The notes beneath the pieces are model-generated. The model saw only the letters and a list, made by a program, of their open reading frames with translations, did not search any database and was not told where the DNA came from. From Nitrospirota bacterium (GTDB lineage Bacteria; Nitrospirota; UBA9217), in contig CAVUCU010000001.1 in NCBI GenBank assembly GCA_963740085.1, positions 1 through 64,000 on the forward strand: DNA of 64,000 nt, written 5' to 3'. Below, piece by piece: positions 1-62,539 of the stretch; the first letter of the stretch is position 1, and each line of letters starts with the position of its first letter. Made by a program: the position numbers and the translations under genes.

Positions 1-160
1 CGCAGAATAAAATCACGCCTTTCTTTTTTAGATTCAACATCTAAAGGCATTCATCTGCGTTAATCTGCGTAATCTGTGGACAAAAAGACTTTCAGGGACC
101 AACTCTATCCGCAGATGTCGCAGAGTGCGCAGAATAAAATCACGCCGGACCCCGCTACGG

Positions 161-347
161 TCAGGACTTGCGGTTTGACATCCGCCGCTTTCCACGCGTT
201 CGATACACTGCCCGGCTCTCTTTGATGAGATCCAATCTTCCTTTTGCGACTCTCCTCCCCATCTTGAGGTGCCAAAATGGTACTTCAAGTTGTCGAACTC
301 TTCTTCGTGAGCTGTATCATGAAATCATCAGGAAAGCGCTCAAGATT
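161..347 (-). pseudogene. ORF6N-domain protein remnant (frameshifted, internally deleted)
   Basis: Minus strand reads NLERFPDDFMIQLTK / EEFDNLKYHFGTSRWGG / KRKIG / LIKESRAVYR..* across frameshifts. These match the ORF6N motif and the usual C-terminal tail of such proteins. Confidence 0.75.
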
Positions 348-495
348 TCATCTGTTCTCCGTTTTGTTATCTCCAGCATCAATGAGGATAACCGTTCTAT
401 CCGCAGATGTCGCAGAATGCGCAGAAAAAGCAAACCTTCCGTTTCATTCTAGATTCCATCTGCGTTAATCTGCGTAATCTGTGGACAAAAGACTT

Positions 496-918
496 TCAGG
501 GACCAACTCTATCCGCAGAGATTTCAGATTTTGAAGAGAGAACAAATCTTTCATTTTCCAATCGGACGGCCCCGAAGTTCAGCAGCAAACCTCTCCCATG
601 TCTGGATGCCTTGAGGTAATTAATGACCTGTGCCTTCTCTTTTCCGCCAAGTTGATCCAAAGCCTTCAATTCCACGATCACATCGTCATAACAAATAAAA
701 TCCGACTTATAGGTAGCATTCAACCGCTCGCCCTTATAGTCGATCGGCAATTCTACCTCACGTCTAAAGGGAATACCCCGGCGCAAAAACTCTCTTTCTA
801 GAGCCTCCTGATAAACAGCCTCCAAAAAACCGCAACCAAGAACGCGATGAACTTCGAGGGCCGCGCCTATTATGGCATAGGTTTGAGGATCACGTATATT
901 ATCTTCTGAAATATTCAT
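496..918 (-). CDS. GxxExxY family protein (PD-(D/E)XK nuclease-like)
   Basis: IIGAALEVHRVLGCGFLEAVYQEAL, D..C.D.VIVELKA, Q.INYLKAS, GLLLNFG motifs. Confidence 0.95.
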   Translation of the reverse strand: MNISEDNIRDPQTYAIIGAALEVHRVLGCGFLEAVYQEALEREFLRRGIPFRREVELPIDYKGERLNATYKSDFICYDDVIVELKALDQLGGKEKAQVINYLKASRHGRGLLLNFGAVRLENERFVLSSKSEISADRVGP

Positions 919-1458
919 TTTCGTTAATGGACAGATTCTTTAGAACCGATACTTTCTGCAGATGTCGCAGAGTGCGCAGAAAAAGCGAACCTTCTGTTTT
1001 ATTCTAGATTCCATCTGCGTTAATCTGCGTAATCTGTGGACAAAAGACTTTCAGGGACCAACTCTATCCGCAGATGTCGCAGAATGCGCAGAATAAAATC
1101 ACGCCTATCTTTTTTAGATTCAAACACTAAAGGCATTTATCTGCGTTAATCTGCGTAATCTGTGGACAAACTTCTTTCAGGACCAACTCTATCCGCAGAT
1201 GTCGCAGAGTGCGCAGAAAAAGCGAACCTTCTGTTTTATTCTAGATTCCATCTGCGTTAATCTGCGTAATCTGTGGACAAAAGACTTTCAGGACCAATTC
1301 TATCCGCAGATGTCGCAGAATGCGCAGAAAAAAATTAAGTATGTTCCGCTCAGATTCAAACACTAAAGGCATTTATCTGCGTTAATCTGCGTAATCTGTG
1401 GACAGATGTTTCTCATCTGAGTGCATGAGGAAACCAGTTGGCTCATCACTGTTTTTTG

Positions 1459-1499
1459 GAAGAATATTCCTATTGAGGGTAAAAGTAAAGAAGGTTTTT
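1459..1499 (-). promoter_or_regulatory. sigma70-like promoter module, copy 1 (TTTACT-17-TATTCT), facing the hairpin array
   Basis: -35 at 1484-1489, -10 at 1461-1466; near-identical copies at 6756 and 22638. Confidence 0.6.
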
Positions 1500-1629
1500 G
1501 TTCAGGGTTCAAGGGTGATGCGTTGTGGAATTCGGAATGCGCATTGCGGAACGGAATCAAAACAGTTCTAATATATGAGCCGAAAATTGCTGCCGAATGC
1601 CGTCTTACCGGCATCCGGCAGGGCTTCCC

Positions 1630-2511
1630 TTACGCAGCCTTCGTCGCAGCGCCCCTCCACTCCATGGTGATCTCCTTGACGAAATCGTCGAAGGTCCGGG
1701 GCTTGTGCCCAAGGAGCTTCTGCATTTTTTCGAGGTCCTCCTTCGAGGCGATCATCCCGTTGTCATGGAAGAACTGGTACATGATGCGCATATCCGCGAT
1801 CAGGAACTCCGGCATCATCTTCTTTGCCTTTTCTCCCCAGGCATCGAGGTCGTCCCCGCTGTACCGGACCTCCCGTCCCAGGTGCTTTGTGTAGATCCCG
1901 GCGATCCCTTCTCCCGTCAGGGTATCGGGTCCGTGGATCTCGTACGTCTGGCCCTCGTGACCGGACTTCATGAGCGCGTTGATCGCACAGTCAGCGATGT
2001 CGCGCACATCGACCCGGTTCACGCCCTTCGTGCCGATGGGCTGGGGATAAACGCTGTACTGCATGATCGCGTCCTTCAACCAGAGGTCGTTCTGGAAGAA
2101 ATTGTTCGGCCGGAGGATCGTGTAGGCGATCTTCGACTCCTTGACGGCCTTCTCCACCGGAAGTTTGCTCCGGAAATGCGGTATTCTTTCCGACCCTTTG
2201 GGCATGGAGACCGACATGTAGACGATCTTCTTGACCCCGGCCGCCTTTGCCGCGGATACGGCAGAAAGCCCCTCCTCTGTCTCGTTCGGCCCCACGGGGA
2301 CAAGAAGGAACATGCTGTCGACGCCGTCGAATGCCGCACGGAGCGTATCGGGATCATCAAAGTCCGCCCGATACCCTTCCACGCCTGCTGGCAGCTTTTT
2401 CAGTTTATCCGGGGAATGGCTCATGACCCGAACGTTGACCCCCTGTTTAAGCAGGCCGGACACCACCATTCTTCCCACCATACCTGTTCCGCCTATAATG
2501 AGTGTCTTCAT
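1630..2511 (-). CDS. NmrA/atypical SDR family NAD(P)-binding protein
   Basis: MKTLIIGGTGMVG Rossmann motif, YTILRPNNFFQN, VDVRDIA; RBS AGGAGG before the ATG at 2511. Confidence 0.9.
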   Translation of the reverse strand: MKTLIIGGTGMVGRMVVSGLLKQGVNVRVMSHSPDKLKKLPAGVEGYRADFDDPDTLRAAFDGVDSMFLLVPVGPNETEEGLSAVSAAKAAGVKKIVYMSVSMPKGSERIPHFRSKLPVEKAVKESKIAYTILRPNNFFQNDLWLKDAIMQYSVYPQPIGTKGVNRVDVRDIADCAINALMKSGHEGQTYEIHGPDTLTGEGIAGIYTKHLGREVRYSGDDLDAWGEKAKKMMPEFLIADMRIMYQFFHDNGMIASKEDLEKMQKLLGHKPRTFDDFVKEITMEWRGAATKAA

Positions 2512-2608
2512 AATGCACCTCCTATCGCTACTCACCGGAAGTCTTCGTTTTTCATGGGGATGTCGATCGCGCGGGATGCGAAGATGCTTTCGTGAGAGGC
2601 CTACTTTA

Positions 2609-2637
2609 AGTATGACGCCGATAGAGCGTCATGTCAA
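2609..2637 (-). promoter_or_regulatory. Promoter TTGACA-17-CATACT overlapped by inverted repeat ATGACGC-N7-GCGTCAT (likely operator)
   Basis: -35 2632-2637, -10 2609-2614, inverted repeat 2612-2618/2626-2632. Confidence 0.55.
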
Positions 2638-2670
2638 GGAGACCGGGGAATACAGTGTCTATTAGTACTG

Positions 2671-2786
2671 CAGGGGTCAGGGGTCAGGGGTCAGGGGTCA
2701 GGGGTCAGGGGTCAGGGGTCAGGGGTCAGGGGTCAGGGGTCAGGGGTCAGGGGTCAGGGGTCAGGGGTCAGGGGTAGGGGTCAGGG
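2671..2786 (+). repeat. (CAGGGGT)n heptamer microsatellite, ~16 units
   Basis: 15 perfect units then one unit lacking the C. Confidence 0.95.
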
Positions 2787-2807
2787 CCGAGGCTTTGTTG
2801 CTTTACT

Positions 2808-3400
2808 CCCATTCGAAAATTTAGGTGTGCGACCGAGTCCAAGGGTTAAGCATTTCGGACTGTCTGAGCCCGCAGGGCGAGTTTCCGAAATGTACTGAGG
2901 ACGACTGAGCACACCGTGAAGAATTTTCGTCGGGTGCCTTTCTTTGGGTCACCTTTCTTGGGCAAGCAAGAAAGGTGACGAAGAAACGGCGTAAAAGTTT
3001 ATGTTTTTTGCACATCCCCTTCGCGTCCTGAACGACATTTTTGACCCGACTAAGGCCACGTCCGCTCGCCCGCGTAAACTCGGCCTTCGGCCTCAGACAC
3101 CGTGCTCTTGCGATAACGCTGGTGCAGGCAGTACTTCGCGTTCGCCCTGTGGGACGCTTCCTTAGGCCAAGACGGGTGCCCAAAAATATCGCCTGCGCCC
3201 AGCGATTACGAGTGGAACCGCGAGTGCAGGGTGTAAGGGCCGTTCCGGGGACGTGCGGAGTTGGGGTAAAGATTAGAATCAAAGTTACTAGCTGGTTCCC
3301 CATTCTAAAATTTAGGTCGTGTGACCAAGTCCGAGGGTTAAGCATTTCGACGGACTGCCTGCACCCAGCGTTTACGAGTGCAACGCGCGAGTGCAGAGCA
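2808..3400. repeat. Composite REP/BIME-like palindromic region
   Basis: Direct repeats 2808-2862/3298-3356 and 3191-3229/3356-3396; perfect 13-bp inverted repeat GTCACCTTTCTTG..CAAGAAAGGTGAC 2948-2979; inverted repeat CATTTCGGA..TCCGAAATG 2851-2892. Confidence 0.75.
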
Positions 3401-3410
3401 GTAAGAAGCA

Positions 3411-3504
3411 AGGGTGGAGTGATGCGAGTCCTGCATATCAGGGTGGAGGTACTGTACCTCTTCCCGGCATGCTGAGTGGCCGAGTGATGAGCTGCCCAAA
3501 AAAA
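3411..3504. repeat. 94-bp dispersed structured repeat, copy 1
   Basis: 92/94 identical to 7154-7247. Confidence 0.9.
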
Positions 3505-3586
3505 ACCGACCCATCGGACAAGAACCGAATGATTAAATTTGGCTGAGACGGGTTAGAGGGTAAATTATCTTTTTTTTCTAAATTGT

Positions 3587-3907
3587 CTATTCTCTGCCTA
3601 TGTCTCTGTACCTGGTTCTGCTATTATATTTAATTTTCTCGGGCCTGCCGCTTTTCTGATGCCTTCCGATAATAAAATAAAGCAGTATTCCGATCGGCGG
3701 GAGCAGTATCACGAAAAGGAACCAGATTATCTTATCCGTATTATTCGTGAACTGGCCGCGAACGATATCGATGATCGTTACCAGCCAGAGCAGAAACAAC
3801 ACAATGGATACGATTATTATTACTGCGGCGAAGCGCGCAATTTGTTCCAAGATCCCTGGATCAAAGTAGGTGTCATTGTTCAACCCTTTATCGTATTGAG
3901 TGGCCAA
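3587..3907 (-). CDS. PLDc N-terminal domain small membrane protein
   Basis: LWLVTIIDIVRGQF..DKIIWFLFVILLPPIGILLYFIIGR; start uncertain. Confidence 0.75.
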   Translation of the reverse strand: MATQYDKGLNNDTYFDPGILEQIARFAAVIIIVSIVLFLLWLVTIIDIVRGQFTNNTDKIIWFLFVILLPPIGILLYFIIGRHQKSGRPEKIKYNSRTRYRDIGRE

Positions 3908-5176: not shown

Positions 5177-5363
5177 CCCCATCCCTCCCGGATCTGCATT
5201 TCTGATCATATCGTTGCCGCAATGTTAAGGGGGGTCAAGTCCGCAGATCAAGTAAGAAGTAAAAATTAAGAATTATGACATTTACGTCTTCCTTCAAACC
5301 TATTCCTTCTTACTTCTTCCTTTCACCTCTTACTTCTTCCTTCATACTTCTTCCTTGCTGTCT

Positions 5364-7392: not shown

Positions 7393-8232
7393 TCAGTTCT
7401 TCGTCGTGCCCACAGCGAGGCCTGATATGATCCGGTCGAGGAAGAGCGTGTACATTATCGCAACAGGGATGCTCGCGATCAGCGCCCCGCCCATGAGCGC
7501 CCCCCAGTAGAAGACGTCCCCCCGCACCAGCTCCGTGGTCATGCCGATGCCGATGGTCTTCTTCGCCGAGTCCTGGATGAAGGAGAGCGCGTAGATGTAC
7601 TCGTGCGCCACGAGCGTGAAGGAGAAGACGACGACGGTGATGATGCCGGGTATGGAGAGCGGCAGAAGGATCCGCGCCATGGCCCCGATCCTGCTGCACC
7701 CGTCGACCAGGGCCTGCTCCTCGATGTCCTTCGGGATGGATTTGAAGAAGCTCATCAGGAGCCAGGTGCAGAACGGCACCGTGAAGGTGGGATATACGAG
7801 GATCAGGGACCACAGGGAGTTCTGGAGCCCCAGGATCGACACGATGCGCGAGAGCGGGATGAACAGGAGCGTCGGCGGGACGAGGTAGGTCAGGAAGATG
7901 CCGATGCCCACGCTCTCCCCCCACTTGCCTGCCAGGCGAGCCAGGCTGATCGCGGCGGGAACCGCCAGGATGACCGTGATCACCACGACGGCGACGCCCA
8001 CAAGGAAGGTGTTCAGCAGGAACCGGAGAAAGAGCGTCTGGTTGAAGAGCAGGTCGAGATGTTCCAGGGTCGGGCTTTCATTCAGCCAGAACGGGTTGTT
8101 GGTCGGGCTGAAGAGGTCGTGGCTCCGCTTGAACATGGTGATCAGCATGATGTAGAACGGCGCGGCCGAGAAAATAACGAAGATGCTCAGCCCGCCGTAG
8201 AAATAACCTTTTGATAATATTTTTTTCAGCAT
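7393..8232 (-). CDS. Carbohydrate ABC transporter permease (MalG-like)
   Basis: EAA loop IPKDIEEQALVDGCSR, about six TM helices. Confidence 0.92.
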   Translation of the reverse strand: MLKKILSKGYFYGGLSIFVIFSAAPFYIMLITMFKRSHDLFSPTNNPFWLNESPTLEHLDLLFNQTLFLRFLLNTFLVGVAVVVITVILAVPAAISLARLAGKWGESVGIGIFLTYLVPPTLLFIPLSRIVSILGLQNSLWSLILVYPTFTVPFCTWLLMSFFKSIPKDIEEQALVDGCSRIGAMARILLPLSIPGIITVVVFSFTLVAHEYIYALSFIQDSAKKTIGIGMTTELVRGDVFYWGALMGGALIASIPVAIMYTLFLDRIISGLAVGTTKN

Positions 8233-28804: not shown

Positions 28805-28858
28805 AAGTCTAAAGAGTTTATAGGGTCCATTGAGTAAATAGAGTTAATGGAGTTTGTA
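28805..28858 (+). repeat. Degenerate nonamer tract GAGTYYATA
   Basis: Six units. Confidence 0.75.
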
Positions 28859-28862
28859 CAAA

Positions 28863-29528
28863 TTAAAGACCTTTGAACCGGACAACTTCTTCCACTCTTC
28901 TTCTCGCGCTCCGGAACTTGTTCTGCGGATGATCGGGATCGGGATGGCCGAGCGCGATGCCGATGACGATCGCGAGGTTGTCGGGTATGCCGAGTTCCCT
29001 GCGGATCAGATCGGGATGCGCCGCGAGTGTGACGGCCACGGCCGAGCCGATGCCGTGCTCCTCGGCCGCGAGCATGATGCCATGGCTCATTGCGCCGAGA
29101 TCGAACAGGGACCACGGGGTGAGGCAGCGGTCCATACAGAGGAAGACGACTGCGGGCGCGTTGAAGAGCCTGTAGTTCATCTGCATCATATCCGGGATGG
29201 AGGCAGGGTCCTTGCACTCCTGCTGCAGTACGGCGGTACGCTCGGCCTTGAGAGCGTCCATGCGCGTGCGGCACTGTTCAGGCCACTCCCCGGGCATCGC
29301 AATGTCCGGGTTCCGGGGCACACAGTCCTTGAGGTTCACGGCGTACGCTTTGCGCAGCCGCTCGAGCGGCTCACCCACGGCGACGAAGATCTCCCACGGC
29401 TGGGTATTGGCCCAGGACGGCGCATGAAGAGCGGGCTCGAGGATCTTTGTCAGCAGGTCCCGGTCTATTCGGTCCGGTTTGAAGGCGCGTATGGTGCGGC
29501 GGGTGGTTAAGGCTTCAGTGACGTTCAT
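28863..29528 (-). CDS. Nitroreductase
   Basis: RRTIRAF, APSWANTQPW, FDLGA, GIALGHP. Confidence 0.92.
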   Translation of the reverse strand: MNVTEALTTRRTIRAFKPDRIDRDLLTKILEPALHAPSWANTQPWEIFVAVGEPLERLRKAYAVNLKDCVPRNPDIAMPGEWPEQCRTRMDALKAERTAVLQQECKDPASIPDMMQMNYRLFNAPAVVFLCMDRCLTPWSLFDLGAMSHGIMLAAEEHGIGSAVAVTLAAHPDLIRRELGIPDNLAIVIGIALGHPDPDHPQNKFRSARRRVEEVVRFKGL

Positions 29529-29632
29529 AGGGTTCAGTGACCTCCCCTTTTTGTTTAAAGCGTACTCCAAAAGAATGAATTTGGCAAGAGGTATCAGTTT
29601 GGGTGTCAGTTTTGGTCAGGGTGTGGTCTGGA

Positions 29633-29695
29633 GAGTCCATTGAGTCCATAGAGTTCATAGAGTCTATGGCGTCTATAGAGTCTGAAGAGTGTGCA
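29633..29695 (+). repeat. Degenerate nonamer tract GAGTYYATA
   Basis: Seven units. Confidence 0.8.
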
Positions 29696-29720
29696 GAGGC
29701 GAGAAGATGTCTGCTCAAGA

Positions 29721-30959: not shown

Positions 30960-31044
30960 GAGTACTCCTTAAAATCAGGGTTCAGAGTTCAGCGTTCAGG
31001 GTGAGCCTTGAACCGTGAACCTGACGACCTGATCACACGCAAAC

Positions 31045-35903: not shown

Positions 35904-36014
35904 TTTAATTCAGTAGTCAGTTGTCAGGAGGCAGGAGTCAGGAGAAGAAGGTTTAATTCAGAATTGTTTTGATGTTATTCCGGCTTCTGGATACTGACTT
36001 CTGGCTCCTGTCCT

Positions 36015-36296: not shown

Positions 36297-36435
36297 AGCC
36301 AGAACGTAAAAAGGCACGATTGCAAAATGCAGAATTCAAAATGGAAAAGTTAAAATGAACGGATATGAAATCATGGCCTGTGGCCATACCTCAATTTTGC
36401 AATTTGCATTTTGAAATTTGAATTATGCGGTTGTC

Positions 36436-62043: not shown

Positions 62044-62050
62044 ATGGCGT

Positions 62051-62122
62051 GGATGCGTTGATGCGTCAATGCGTCGAAGCGTGAACGCGTCTATGCGTTA
62101 AAGCGTATATGTGTGAATGCGA
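62051..62122 (+). repeat. Nine tandem octamers NNATGCGT (left arm around the four-helix-bundle gene)
   Basis: GGATGCGT TGATGCGT CAATGCGT CGAAGCGT GAACGCGT CTATGCGT..; complementary units at 62491-62535. Confidence 0.85.
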
Positions 62123-62476
62123 TTATGCGGCTTTGCCCTTGATATACTTGATGAAGTTCAGGTGTTTGCGCCGTATATGTTCGATATTTTCCATGATGTC
62201 TTGATCGTTCCTGTATTGTAAACGATTCGCAATAATTAGTTGCGTCTCAACTTCAGCCGGTGAGCCGAGACAGATATAGAGGTACTGTAAATATTCACGT
62301 TTCGAATTTCTTGCTGCTCCTTCTGCAATGTTCGAAGGAATGGATACGGCTGCCCTGCGAAGCTGCGATGTGAGCCCGAATTGTTCATCCTTCGGAAATC
62401 TTTCCGTTAATCTGTAGACCTTTTCGACTATGTCAAGCCCCATTTTCCATACATCCAAATCTTTATGCGTCACCAA
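62123..62476 (-). CDS. Four helix bundle protein (23S rRNA IVP family)
   Basis: HKDLDVWK, FPKDEQFGLTSQLRRAAVSIPSNIAEG, GS..EVETQL; start uncertain. Confidence 0.9.
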   Translation of the reverse strand: MVTHKDLDVWKMGLDIVEKVYRLTERFPKDEQFGLTSQLRRAAVSIPSNIAEGAARNSKREYLQYLYICLGSPAEVETQLIIANRLQYRNDQDIMENIEHIRRKHLNFIKYIKGKAA

Positions 62477-62539
62477 TCCATACCGCCATCTCCGCTTCTT
62501 CGCATCCACGCATACTCCACGCGTCTCACTCATCAACAG

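Follow-up and report, generated by a model that had tools for sequence, protein, structure and literature searches.

A hairpin array around a GxxExxY gene in a Nitrospirota contig and related boxed inverted arms in other phyla

We analyzed positions 1 to 64,000 of contig CAVUCU010000001.1 of a Nitrospirota bacterium (lineage UBA9217, assembly GCA_963740085.1), and this whole stretch of 64,000 nucleotides (nt) is referred to as the window. Positions 1-1403 contain an array of eight hairpin units, six of which are empty, while one carries an intact gene for a GxxExxY protein and one a fragment with sub-threshold similarity to ORF6N. An earlier examination of the DNA without database searches, which we call the sequence-only reading, had described at least eight units of which six were empty, arms with a periodicity of about 9 nt and two loop types of about 45 and 31 nt, and all of this agrees with our results. 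The balance of the evidence presented below leans towards the view that selfish “boxed hairpin” elements, gene-bearing as well as empty, have accumulated locally in this region, where tandem duplication has amplified them.

The right arm of the units (ATCTGCGTTAATCTGCGTAATCTGTGGAC, 29 nt) is present in six exact copies, at positions 53, 458, 1013, 1139, 1250 and 1375, and the left arm (CCGCAGATGTCGCAGARTGCGCAGAA, 26 nt) in six copies with at most one mismatch, at positions 109, 401, 956, 1068, 1193 and 1304; for both arms, the expectation from shuffled sequences is 0.00. The left arm is also represented incompletely at 1-8, and a stump of 7 nt remains at 513-519. No copy of the arms was found in the other 62.6 kb of the window. 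Each arm is built from three boxes, CGCAGA in the left arm and TCTGCG in the right arm, with a spacing of 9-10 nt, and the loops are either 31 or 45 nt long, with linkers of 25-27 nt.

Read on the plus strand, the array starts with unit 0 (1-81), which is cut by the start of the window and consists of the end of a left arm (1-8), the remaining 44 nt of a 45-type loop (9-52) and a right arm (53-81); the stretch 1-84 is 94% identical to 1087-1170 (repeat family D2). A linker of 27 nt (82-108) separates it from unit 1 (109-146), in which the left arm (109-134) is followed by the first 12 nt of the 45-type loop (TAAAATCACGCC) and then by cargo. A possible degenerate right arm of this unit, identical to the right arm at 15 of 29 positions in a MAFFT alignment, is located at 350-378. 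Unit 2 (401-486) is empty and comprises a left arm (401-426), a 31-nt loop and a right arm (458-486). It is followed by a linker (487-512) that, together with the left-arm stump, spans 487-519. Beyond the GxxExxY gene, a degenerate right arm (~901-929, 14 of 29 positions) and a degenerate linker fill the region up to the next left arm (901-955). The remaining units are all empty: unit 4 (956-1041; left arm 956-981 with one mismatch, 31-nt loop, right arm 1013-1041), unit 5 (1068-1167; left arm 1068-1093, 45-nt loop, right arm 1139-1167), unit 6 (1193-1278; left arm 1193-1218, 31-nt loop, right arm 1250-1278) and unit 7 (1304-1403; left arm 1304-1329, diverged 45-nt loop, right arm 1375-1403), which is the last of the array. 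Over 952-1425, a block of two hairpins (236-237 nt) has been duplicated in tandem, and this accounts for the alternation of the two loop types. Much of the array is local tandem duplication and not the outcome of eight independent events.

Three short helices, interrupted by small internal loops, make up the fold of a single unit. As single-stranded DNA, units reach -21.0 and -17.8 kcal/mol (z-scores of -5.1 and -4.5), and none of 200 shuffled sequences folded as well. The combination right arm-linker-left arm folds equally well (-17.8 kcal/mol, z-score of -5.0). Because of this, and because the arms alternate, the pairing partner of an arm within the array is ambiguous. Both strands of a 480-nt block of the array fold far better than shuffled sequences, with the plus strand slightly ahead. 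Plain terminators were rejected as an explanation on the basis of hairpin anatomy. A clustered regularly interspaced short palindromic repeats (CRISPR) array was also rejected, as successive arms are inverted relative to each other and the would-be “spacers” belong to two recurring types of loop and a single type of linker.

Serial imperfect inverted repeats that act as folded single strands and are accompanied by small, promoter-less genes in one orientation are reminiscent of integron cassettes with their attC sites. However, the genes of the array are inside the hairpins, not between them; no integrase was found among the 59 open reading frames (ORFs) of the window that were scanned or next to the array; and by eye, no RYYYAAC/GTTRRRY pair (the R'/R'' core) is present at the base of the stem. 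An integron cassette array was therefore rejected. No transposase domain was found among the 59 ORFs either. Repeats of this type are hard to assemble, and homologues of the GxxExxY gene are mostly on short contigs, which would fit an assembly artefact. Against this, the units differ from one another by substitutions, the array sits on a contig of 1.62 Mb, and homologues from independent metagenomes read through the same junction of stump, linker and next arm. Integron-like array or artefact, we give this pair of explanations very little probability.

The intact gene (496-918, minus strand) encodes a GxxExxY protein of 140 residues that matches PF13366 (131.8 bits, cut-off 22, E-value 2e-38) and TIGR04256 (135.6 bits, cut-off 35). 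Its last codons and its stop codon (496-498) lie on the linker and the left-arm stump at 487-519, as the sequence-only reading had proposed for the C-terminal codons. It had also placed a weak right arm at the 5' end of the gene. The first codons indeed overlap the degenerate right arm at ~901-929, but the match amounts to only 14 of 29 positions in the MAFFT alignment. Thus, in the window, the arms that bracket the GxxExxY gene are degenerate.

Residues G30, E33, Y36, D73, E83 and K85 of the protein occupy columns that are at least 90% conserved among 110 sequences, and the columns of E33, D73, E83 and K85, the acidic and lysine residues of the PD-(D/E)XK core, are nearly invariant. The AlphaFold model has a mean pLDDT (predicted local distance difference test) of 90, and the best Foldseek matches in the PDB are Cas4 SSO0001, lambda exonuclease and the nuclease domain of AdnAB (E-values of 1e-4 to 5e-3); RecB-type nuclease domains are among the nearest folds, and archaeal Holliday-junction resolvases appear lower in the list. 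According to this model, the GxxExxY protein has a PD-(D/E)XK nuclease fold in which the motif and the core residues are kept, and nuclease activity is predicted. A sequence search of the PDB gave no relative, and the protein had no match in PADLOC or PHROGs. The family is very large, with 15633 cluster representatives at E-values up to 0.001. In the literature searched, PF13366 (PDDEXK_3) is mentioned only by a survey of the PD-(D/E)XK superfamily, which gives it as “unknown” with “multiple transfers” (PMC3424549).

The second cargo is located at 266-353 on the minus strand. It is a 5'-truncated and stop-interrupted ORF6N-like stretch that matches PF10543 below threshold (E-value 7.5e-4; 20.2 bits versus a gathering cut-off of 27.8) over positions 33-62 of the 86 positions of the profile, in one frame and with stops read as X. 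The second frame (...GTSRWGG) gave no match. The sequence RTVILID... that precedes the match was considered as the N-terminus of ORF6N and dropped, because it aligns better, though weakly, with the degenerate right arm. The 12 nt that follow the left arm at 109 are the start of a 45-nt loop, which fits a gene that was placed in, or lost from, that loop type. Of the decayed ORF6N gene described in the sequence-only reading, a stretch following the left arm at 109 is seen; its score stays under the cut-off, and it is best described as a probable fragment. ORF6N as a regular cargo was not borne out: this sub-threshold fragment is the only case, and none was seen elsewhere, where no search for ORF6N examples was made.

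Does the array have a promoter of its own? The sequence-only reading had proposed TTTACT-17-TATTCT at 1461-1489 on the minus strand, at the head of the array. This sequence agrees with the consensus at 8 of 12 positions, and it is not among the four sites that a promoter scan of positions 1-2700 reported (2.2 ± 1.3 expected by chance), so that we do not retain it. An NmrA-family gene (1630-2535, minus strand) is transcribed towards the array in the same direction as the GxxExxY gene, which makes read-through a likelier source of transcripts than an own promoter. A scan of positions 1-3600 with Rfam, at E-values up to 1, gave no match.

Boxed arms were searched for in other genomes with the pattern CGCAGA-N3-CGCAGA-N3-CGCAGA in a database containing one genome per species, which resulted in at least 120 loci. 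The 120 listed loci do not include the source genome; six are plain tandem repeats, mostly coding, and 114 remain. Among these, a reverse-complement partner (score of at least 15, within 1 kb) was present downstream in 46 cases and upstream in three, which indicates that the natural unit has its purine-rich arm first (left arm-loop-right arm). The loops of the listed hairpins range from 6 to 796 nt, the majority being shorter than 125 nt. In 45 ungapped hairpins, 160 of the 270 spacer positions are complementary, versus 91.3 ± 9.0 with shuffled partners (the maximum of 1000 shuffles being 119), and many listed hairpins hold mismatched spacers between kept boxes, like the units of the window. 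Flanks such as TTAAC...GTTAA and CTCAC...GTGAG belong to the inverted repeat itself. We grouped the listed loci ourselves by the titles of their records; according to this grouping, three-box loci among the matches listed come from at least 12 phyla plus one archaeon, and the names include Acidobacteriota, Verrucomicrobiota, Planctomycetota, Gemmatimonadota, Chloroflexota, Bacteroidota, Cyanobacteria, Pseudomonadota, Thermodesulfobacteriota, Elusimicrobia, Desantisbacteria, an Abditibacteriaceae genome and a Thermoplasmatota archaeon. Arms of 24 nt are identical between genomes of Phycisphaerales, Verrucomicrobiae and Abditibacteriaceae.

Boxed hairpins can also be nested in the loops of other hairpins, as in L108 (~7719-7929), L031 (3565-3871) and L030 (6104-6442), or lie adjacent to them, as in L096 (389-616). 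The boxes of these hairpins are of other types (GCCAAGA, CGCAAAG and CCACGAAGA), whereas the hairpins that contain or adjoin them are of the CGCAGA type; all have a 9-nt period and the purine-rich arm first, which suggests that there is a whole class of such elements. Dense arrays are rare: within the sample of fetched loci, at least four arm-like sites were present in L007, L045 and L091 alone. The linker motif TTTCAGGRACCAA was found in none of the 127 fetched loci, and a homologue search with a spurious ORF that spans one unit of the array (962-1096) returned only the ORF of the window itself, which is uninformative on spread. Pfam analysis of 13 ORFs from the six longest “loops” identified only a 6-phosphogluconolactonase (L040), and the ORFs that start directly after arms in the 120 loci are noise, except those of L033 and L119. 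A number of cyanobacterial loci (L001, L021, L029, L037, L081, L102, L106, L109 and L110) are half-sites without a complementary arm within 1 kb. These orphan half-sites consist of TTTAAC, three CGCAGAG boxes and a purine-rich tract, and they recur in several Microcoleus genomes.

Searching the arms genome-wide and in relatives had been proposed by the sequence-only reading, and boxed inverted arms of the same kind are indeed present around GxxExxY genes in other phyla. All four GxxExxY genes among the 120 listed loci are bracketed by periodic arms. In L033, perfect arms and an AG-rich tract precede the ATG of a frameshifted gene, and in L119 an arm is followed by a gene that is 64% identical to that of the window and is cut by the end of the locus; in both loci, the arm is the one that the scan had matched. 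The gene of L007, also frameshifted, has its own CGCAGAG arms at a distance of 2 kb from the scan match, and the arms of L049 have a different box, GCCAAGA, with the same spacing. Boxed arms were also found at three of seven GxxExxY genes on plasmids: on both sides in Bernardetia (L124) and in Bacteroides finegoldii (L125; gene at 1480-1854, after radA), and on the 5' side only in Sphingomonas (L126; gene at 1480-1908, between fabD and fabG). The operons interrupted in L125 and L126 are conserved ones. The record of B. finegoldii is labelled as a 24.8-kb plasmid, yet it contains housekeeping genes. As for the other plasmids, Gemmatirosa (L123) has an empty boxed hairpin just downstream of the gene, Treponema (L121) has a plain 11-bp inverted repeat, and L122 and L127 have direct repeats. 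An ORF in the loop of an inverted-repeat stem is clear in L033, L007, L049, L124 and L125. Moreover, the GxxExxY gene has the direction of the upstream host gene in nine of nine cases (the window, L007, L049, L119, L121 and L124-L127), a count that omits L033, which is ambiguous, and L122 and L123, which are unannotated.

The arms have also left their mark on the ends of the proteins. Among the best 120 homologues, of which 117 could be anchored, 73 contain box-encoded peptides with period 3 (SA.SA, xQIxQI or xADxTD) in their N-terminal extension or C-terminal tail, whereas no such peptide occurs in the 14029 residues of their cores. SA.SA corresponds to translated TCTGCG, and xQIxQI and xADxTD to translated CGCAGAT. 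In line with this, the period-3 identity, calculated for the best 150 representatives of 50%-identity clusters, is 4.7% in the cores, 10.3% in the N-terminal extensions and 11.6% in the C-terminal tails. In several of the ten closest homologues (for example P0001, P0003 and P0005; 83-97% identical), the tail (...STDYTD/STDYVD) runs from an incomplete 3' arm through a linker resembling that of the window into the 5' arm that follows. Since such arm-linker-arm tails recur in independent assemblies, the array context itself is conserved. A contig of at least 10 kb was seen for 22 of the best 120 homologues, a low number that is expected because such repeats break assemblies.

The type of box goes with the clade of the protein. 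The T-type pair formed by the window and L119 shares 64% identity, and the G-type proteins of L033, L007, L124 and L125 are 51-68% identical among themselves and 36-54% identical to T-type proteins. Of the 270 homologues nearest to the protein of the window, T-type end signals are present in 73 and G-type ones in three.

These results bear on the possibility that the hairpins are structural repeats of the host, similar to repetitive extragenic palindromic (REP) sequences and bacterial interspersed mosaic elements (BIMEs), that function as terminators, mRNA stabilisers or protein-binding sites, happen to attract insertions and have the GxxExxY and ORF6N genes as incidental passengers. Such an explanation accommodates the facts that the majority of hairpins occur singly between genes and have no cargo, that a single motif recurs in the array in alternating orientations and with spacers of two kinds, like in BIMEs, and that the source genome has many other short-period intergenic repeats. 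However, host repeats are lineage-specific whereas the boxed arms are common to at least 12 phyla, 73 of the 117 close homologues have arm-encoded ends, box type follows protein clade, and the other 62.6 kb of the window lack a copy of the arms. We therefore consider host structural repeats an improbable explanation.

The window contains a second gene-in-hairpin element, with a different box and a different period (62047-62536). It includes a four-helix-bundle gene (62123-62536, minus strand; 23S_rRNA_IVP, Avd-like), the arms of which are about 11 copies of the 8-nt unit TGCGTNNA (62047-62130) and a stretch of 23 nt (62492-62514) that is 78% complementary to these units. Close homologues of the protein, named from Nitrospirota genomes, have N-terminal extensions, for example MRGCTEAVMR, that fit such 8-nt units. 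The only PHROGs match of the protein is “Avd protein of DGR” (diversity-generating retroelement), PADLOC did not match it, and a jackhmmer search with it revealed no such gene in the 120 listed loci. The family of four-helix-bundle “IVS” (intervening sequence) proteins is similarly large as that of GxxExxY, with at least 8000 candidates.

The closest known systems are the IVSs of 23S rRNA and the REPIN/RAYT system (REP doublets forming hairpins and REP-associated tyrosine transposases), with the former being the closest one described and the latter the closest analogue at the DNA level. IVSs with an S23p/four-helix-bundle ORF are found in Leptospira, Coxiella, Brucella and Xanthomonas. According to the Coxiella report (PMC4990558), the 23S rRNA IVS has its S23p four-helix-bundle ORF in the loop of a 28-bp stem that terminal inverted repeats form, the ATG is preceded by an AG-rich tract and by the heptamer GACAGAT in three tandem copies, and RNase III cuts in the stem; the same text regards ORF-bearing IVSs as selfish, with ORFs that decay. 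The boxed elements resemble these IVSs in having a small ORF in a hairpin loop with terminal inverted repeats of about 25-28 bp, as well as short tandem repeats and an AG-rich tract ahead of the ATG, and the window itself has a four-helix-bundle gene with periodic inverted arms. Unlike the IVSs, the boxed element of the window is not located in rRNA, since Rfam gave no match in 1-3600; it follows an NmrA-family gene instead. In addition, it carries a gene for a PD-(D/E)XK protein, its arms with boxes at 9 nt are shared across phyla, and empty copies and arrays exist.

By comparison with these IVSs, the elements may be modules that work at the RNA level, that is, IVSs outside rRNA whose arms matter only in the transcript. 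RNase III would then cut the stem, which would free a self-contained mRNA and insulate the host operon from the insertion, while spread would occur by ordinary recombination or horizontal transfer and the nuclease would have an unrelated job. This explanation, which overlaps with the selfish boxed hairpin element and may hold alongside it, is a possibility that we rate well short of even. The cut stem around the S23p ORF of Coxiella (PMC4990558) is a precedent for it. It agrees with the nine co-directional genes, including the operons fabD-GxxExxY-fabG and radA-GxxExxY-FAD protein, with the fact that the element has no convincing promoter of its own, with a stem consisting of three helices of 6-9 bp with small internal loops, and with the purine-rich, Shine-Dalgarno-like tract that separates the 5' arm from the start codon in L033 and L007; by eye, two of the three arm mismatches in the Bacteroides locus L125 are G-U pairs on the sense strand. 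However, complementarity alone leaves unexplained why the boxes, their spacing and their polarity are conserved across phyla and why identical arms occur in three phyla, the sense strand of the window folds slightly worse than the antisense strand, and many hairpins hold boxes and yet have mismatched spacers. An attempt to polarise G-U versus A-C mismatches by gene direction was dropped, as the window and L125 were inconsistent.

Returning to the selfish boxed hairpin element, its full form is a small GxxExxY gene between two inverted arms of about three boxes at 9-nt spacing, in which the boxes are purine-rich CGCAGA-T/G on the 5' side and TCTGCG on the 3' side. As one heritable unit, the gene is accompanied by its arms in different phyla. 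By analogy, the empty hairpins would be gene-less derivatives, comparable to miniature inverted-repeat transposable elements (MITEs) or REPINs, and decayed copies are represented by the frameshifted genes of L033 and L007 and by the ORF6N fragment of the window. Spread between phyla, the empty and decayed copies left behind, and insertion into intergenic gaps and into other hairpins are how a selfish element behaves. Indeed, the bracketed genes in other phyla, the arm-encoded protein ends and the nested hairpins support the proposal of the sequence-only reading that the system is a cassette-like vehicle with a gene in the hairpin loop; the specific activities that it proposed, with hairpins as recombination or RNA-processing sites and a nuclease that may act on them, found little or no support and remain inferences.

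That the boxes are conserved in sequence, spacing and polarity suggests that a protein recognises them, the simplest candidate being the encoded nuclease. The GxxExxY protein would recognise the boxes of its own arms, either on an extruded hairpin or cruciform of DNA or on an RNA stem. This recognition would drive the spread or the maintenance of the element, for which hairpin loops would be preferred landing sites. In turn, the fact that the genes are oriented like those of the host and have no promoter suggests that the stem functions in read-through RNA. In transcripts that continue from the host gene, the arms would pair into a stem of about 25 bp that brackets the ORF and that RNase III could cleave, as in the 23S rRNA IVS. 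Recognition of the arms by a protein and a role as RNA stem may both hold together.

Several observations weigh against the selfish boxed hairpin element or parts of it. Of the 114 listed loci, 68 have no partner arm within 1 kb, and many of these are cyanobacterial half-sites. Most of the sampled hairpins are empty and solitary, with one of the 46 holding a GxxExxY gene, and in L040 (5863-6946) a CGCAGAG arm and its complement are 999 nt apart around a 6-phosphogluconolactonase gene on the opposite strand; the arms thus occur without a link to the nuclease as well. Four of the seven plasmid GxxExxY genes lack boxed inverted arms around the gene, and the ORF6N cargo scores below threshold. The match between box and clade could be plain co-inheritance and is no proof of recognition, and the fold matches of the GxxExxY protein are generic for the superfamily (template-modelling scores of 0.33-0.57). 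In the window, the RNA of the strand antisense to the genes folds slightly better than that of the sense strand (-163.6 versus -158.7 kcal/mol), and the wobble position of the arms is a G-T on the plus strand; this better pairing of the antisense strand does not favour a role of the arms in the sense transcript there. Finally, neither a mobility event nor a filled/empty pair at an orthologous site nor a target duplication was observed among the loci analyzed.

Elements of this kind have likenesses to mobile DNA. REPIN/RAYT and BIME systems consist of REP doublets that are mobilised by the Y1 transposase they flank. As in REPIN/RAYT, one gene is flanked by inverted short repeats and many gene-less hairpin copies exist, and as in REPIN/BIME clusters, both orientations alternate with characteristic spacers. 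In contrast to REPIN/RAYT, the flanked gene is a PF13366 gene with a predicted PD-(D/E)XK fold and does not encode an HUH/Y1 transposase, a genome contains several copies of the gene instead of one, and the arms are three tandem boxes, not one palindrome, with the same arms occurring in distant phyla. MITEs and foldback transposons share with the boxed elements terminal inverted repeats of short tandem units, short gene-less derivatives and nesting. The boxed elements differ from them in that no known transposase family is involved, no target-site duplication was seen and the full element is about 0.5 kb.

In its most far-reaching form, the proposal would be that a GxxExxY gene with boxed arms constitutes an unrecognised class of very small autonomous mobile elements of about 0.5 kb. 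The protein would read the three boxes on a hairpin or cruciform, cut, and move the element or its empty relatives into other hairpin loops, crossing phyla, and the ORF-bearing 23S rRNA IVSs and the four-helix-bundle genes would be parallel cases. We put this forward as a tentative idea that is more likely wrong than right.

Other features of the window are the following. A small ORF at 3932-4213 matches Imm32 (immunity protein 32; E-value 5.7e-7), and it has no obvious adjacent toxin partner. The gap after the NmrA-family gene contains 16.7 near-perfect copies of the heptamer CAGGGGT (2671-2786). Beside this array there is an apparently non-coding stretch of about 800 nt with 42-nt direct repeats at 2816-2857 and 3308-3349 (81% identical) and a further repeat pair at 3191-3218 and 3357-3384. 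A nitroreductase gene (28863-29570, minus strand) has arrays of AGAGTNNAT with a 9-nt period on both flanks (28813-28854 and 29626-29698), which are in direct and not in inverted orientation. Further intergenic heptamer arrays are located at 5250-5356, 30975-30999, 35910-35944 and 36392-36428 (CTTCTTA, TCAGAGT, TCAGGAG and TTTGCAA). The source genome is unusually rich in short-period intergenic repeats.

In the literature open to searching, no work was found in which hairpins are connected with GxxExxY genes or with the sequences of these arms. Papers naming GxxExxY contained nothing about repeats, searches for the arm sequences as text or for combinations of S23, four helix bundle and ORF6N gave no results, and those for “rRNA-intervening sequence protein” with “inverted repeat” returned only unrelated work.

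Boxed arms explain several types of annotation noise, namely terminal extensions such as PQITQI and SAKSAD, short spurious ORFs such as ...LCVLCG, and broken assemblies. They also offer a conserved cross-phylum DNA motif with which horizontal transfer can be traced. The results suggest that the ORF-bearing IVSs of rRNA belong to a broader class of selfish genes bounded by hairpins. A hairpin with three boxes at 9 nt is a concrete, testable candidate substrate for the very large family of GxxExxY proteins, and should such a protein act on its own arms, it would represent a novel type of nuclease, specific for structure as well as sequence.

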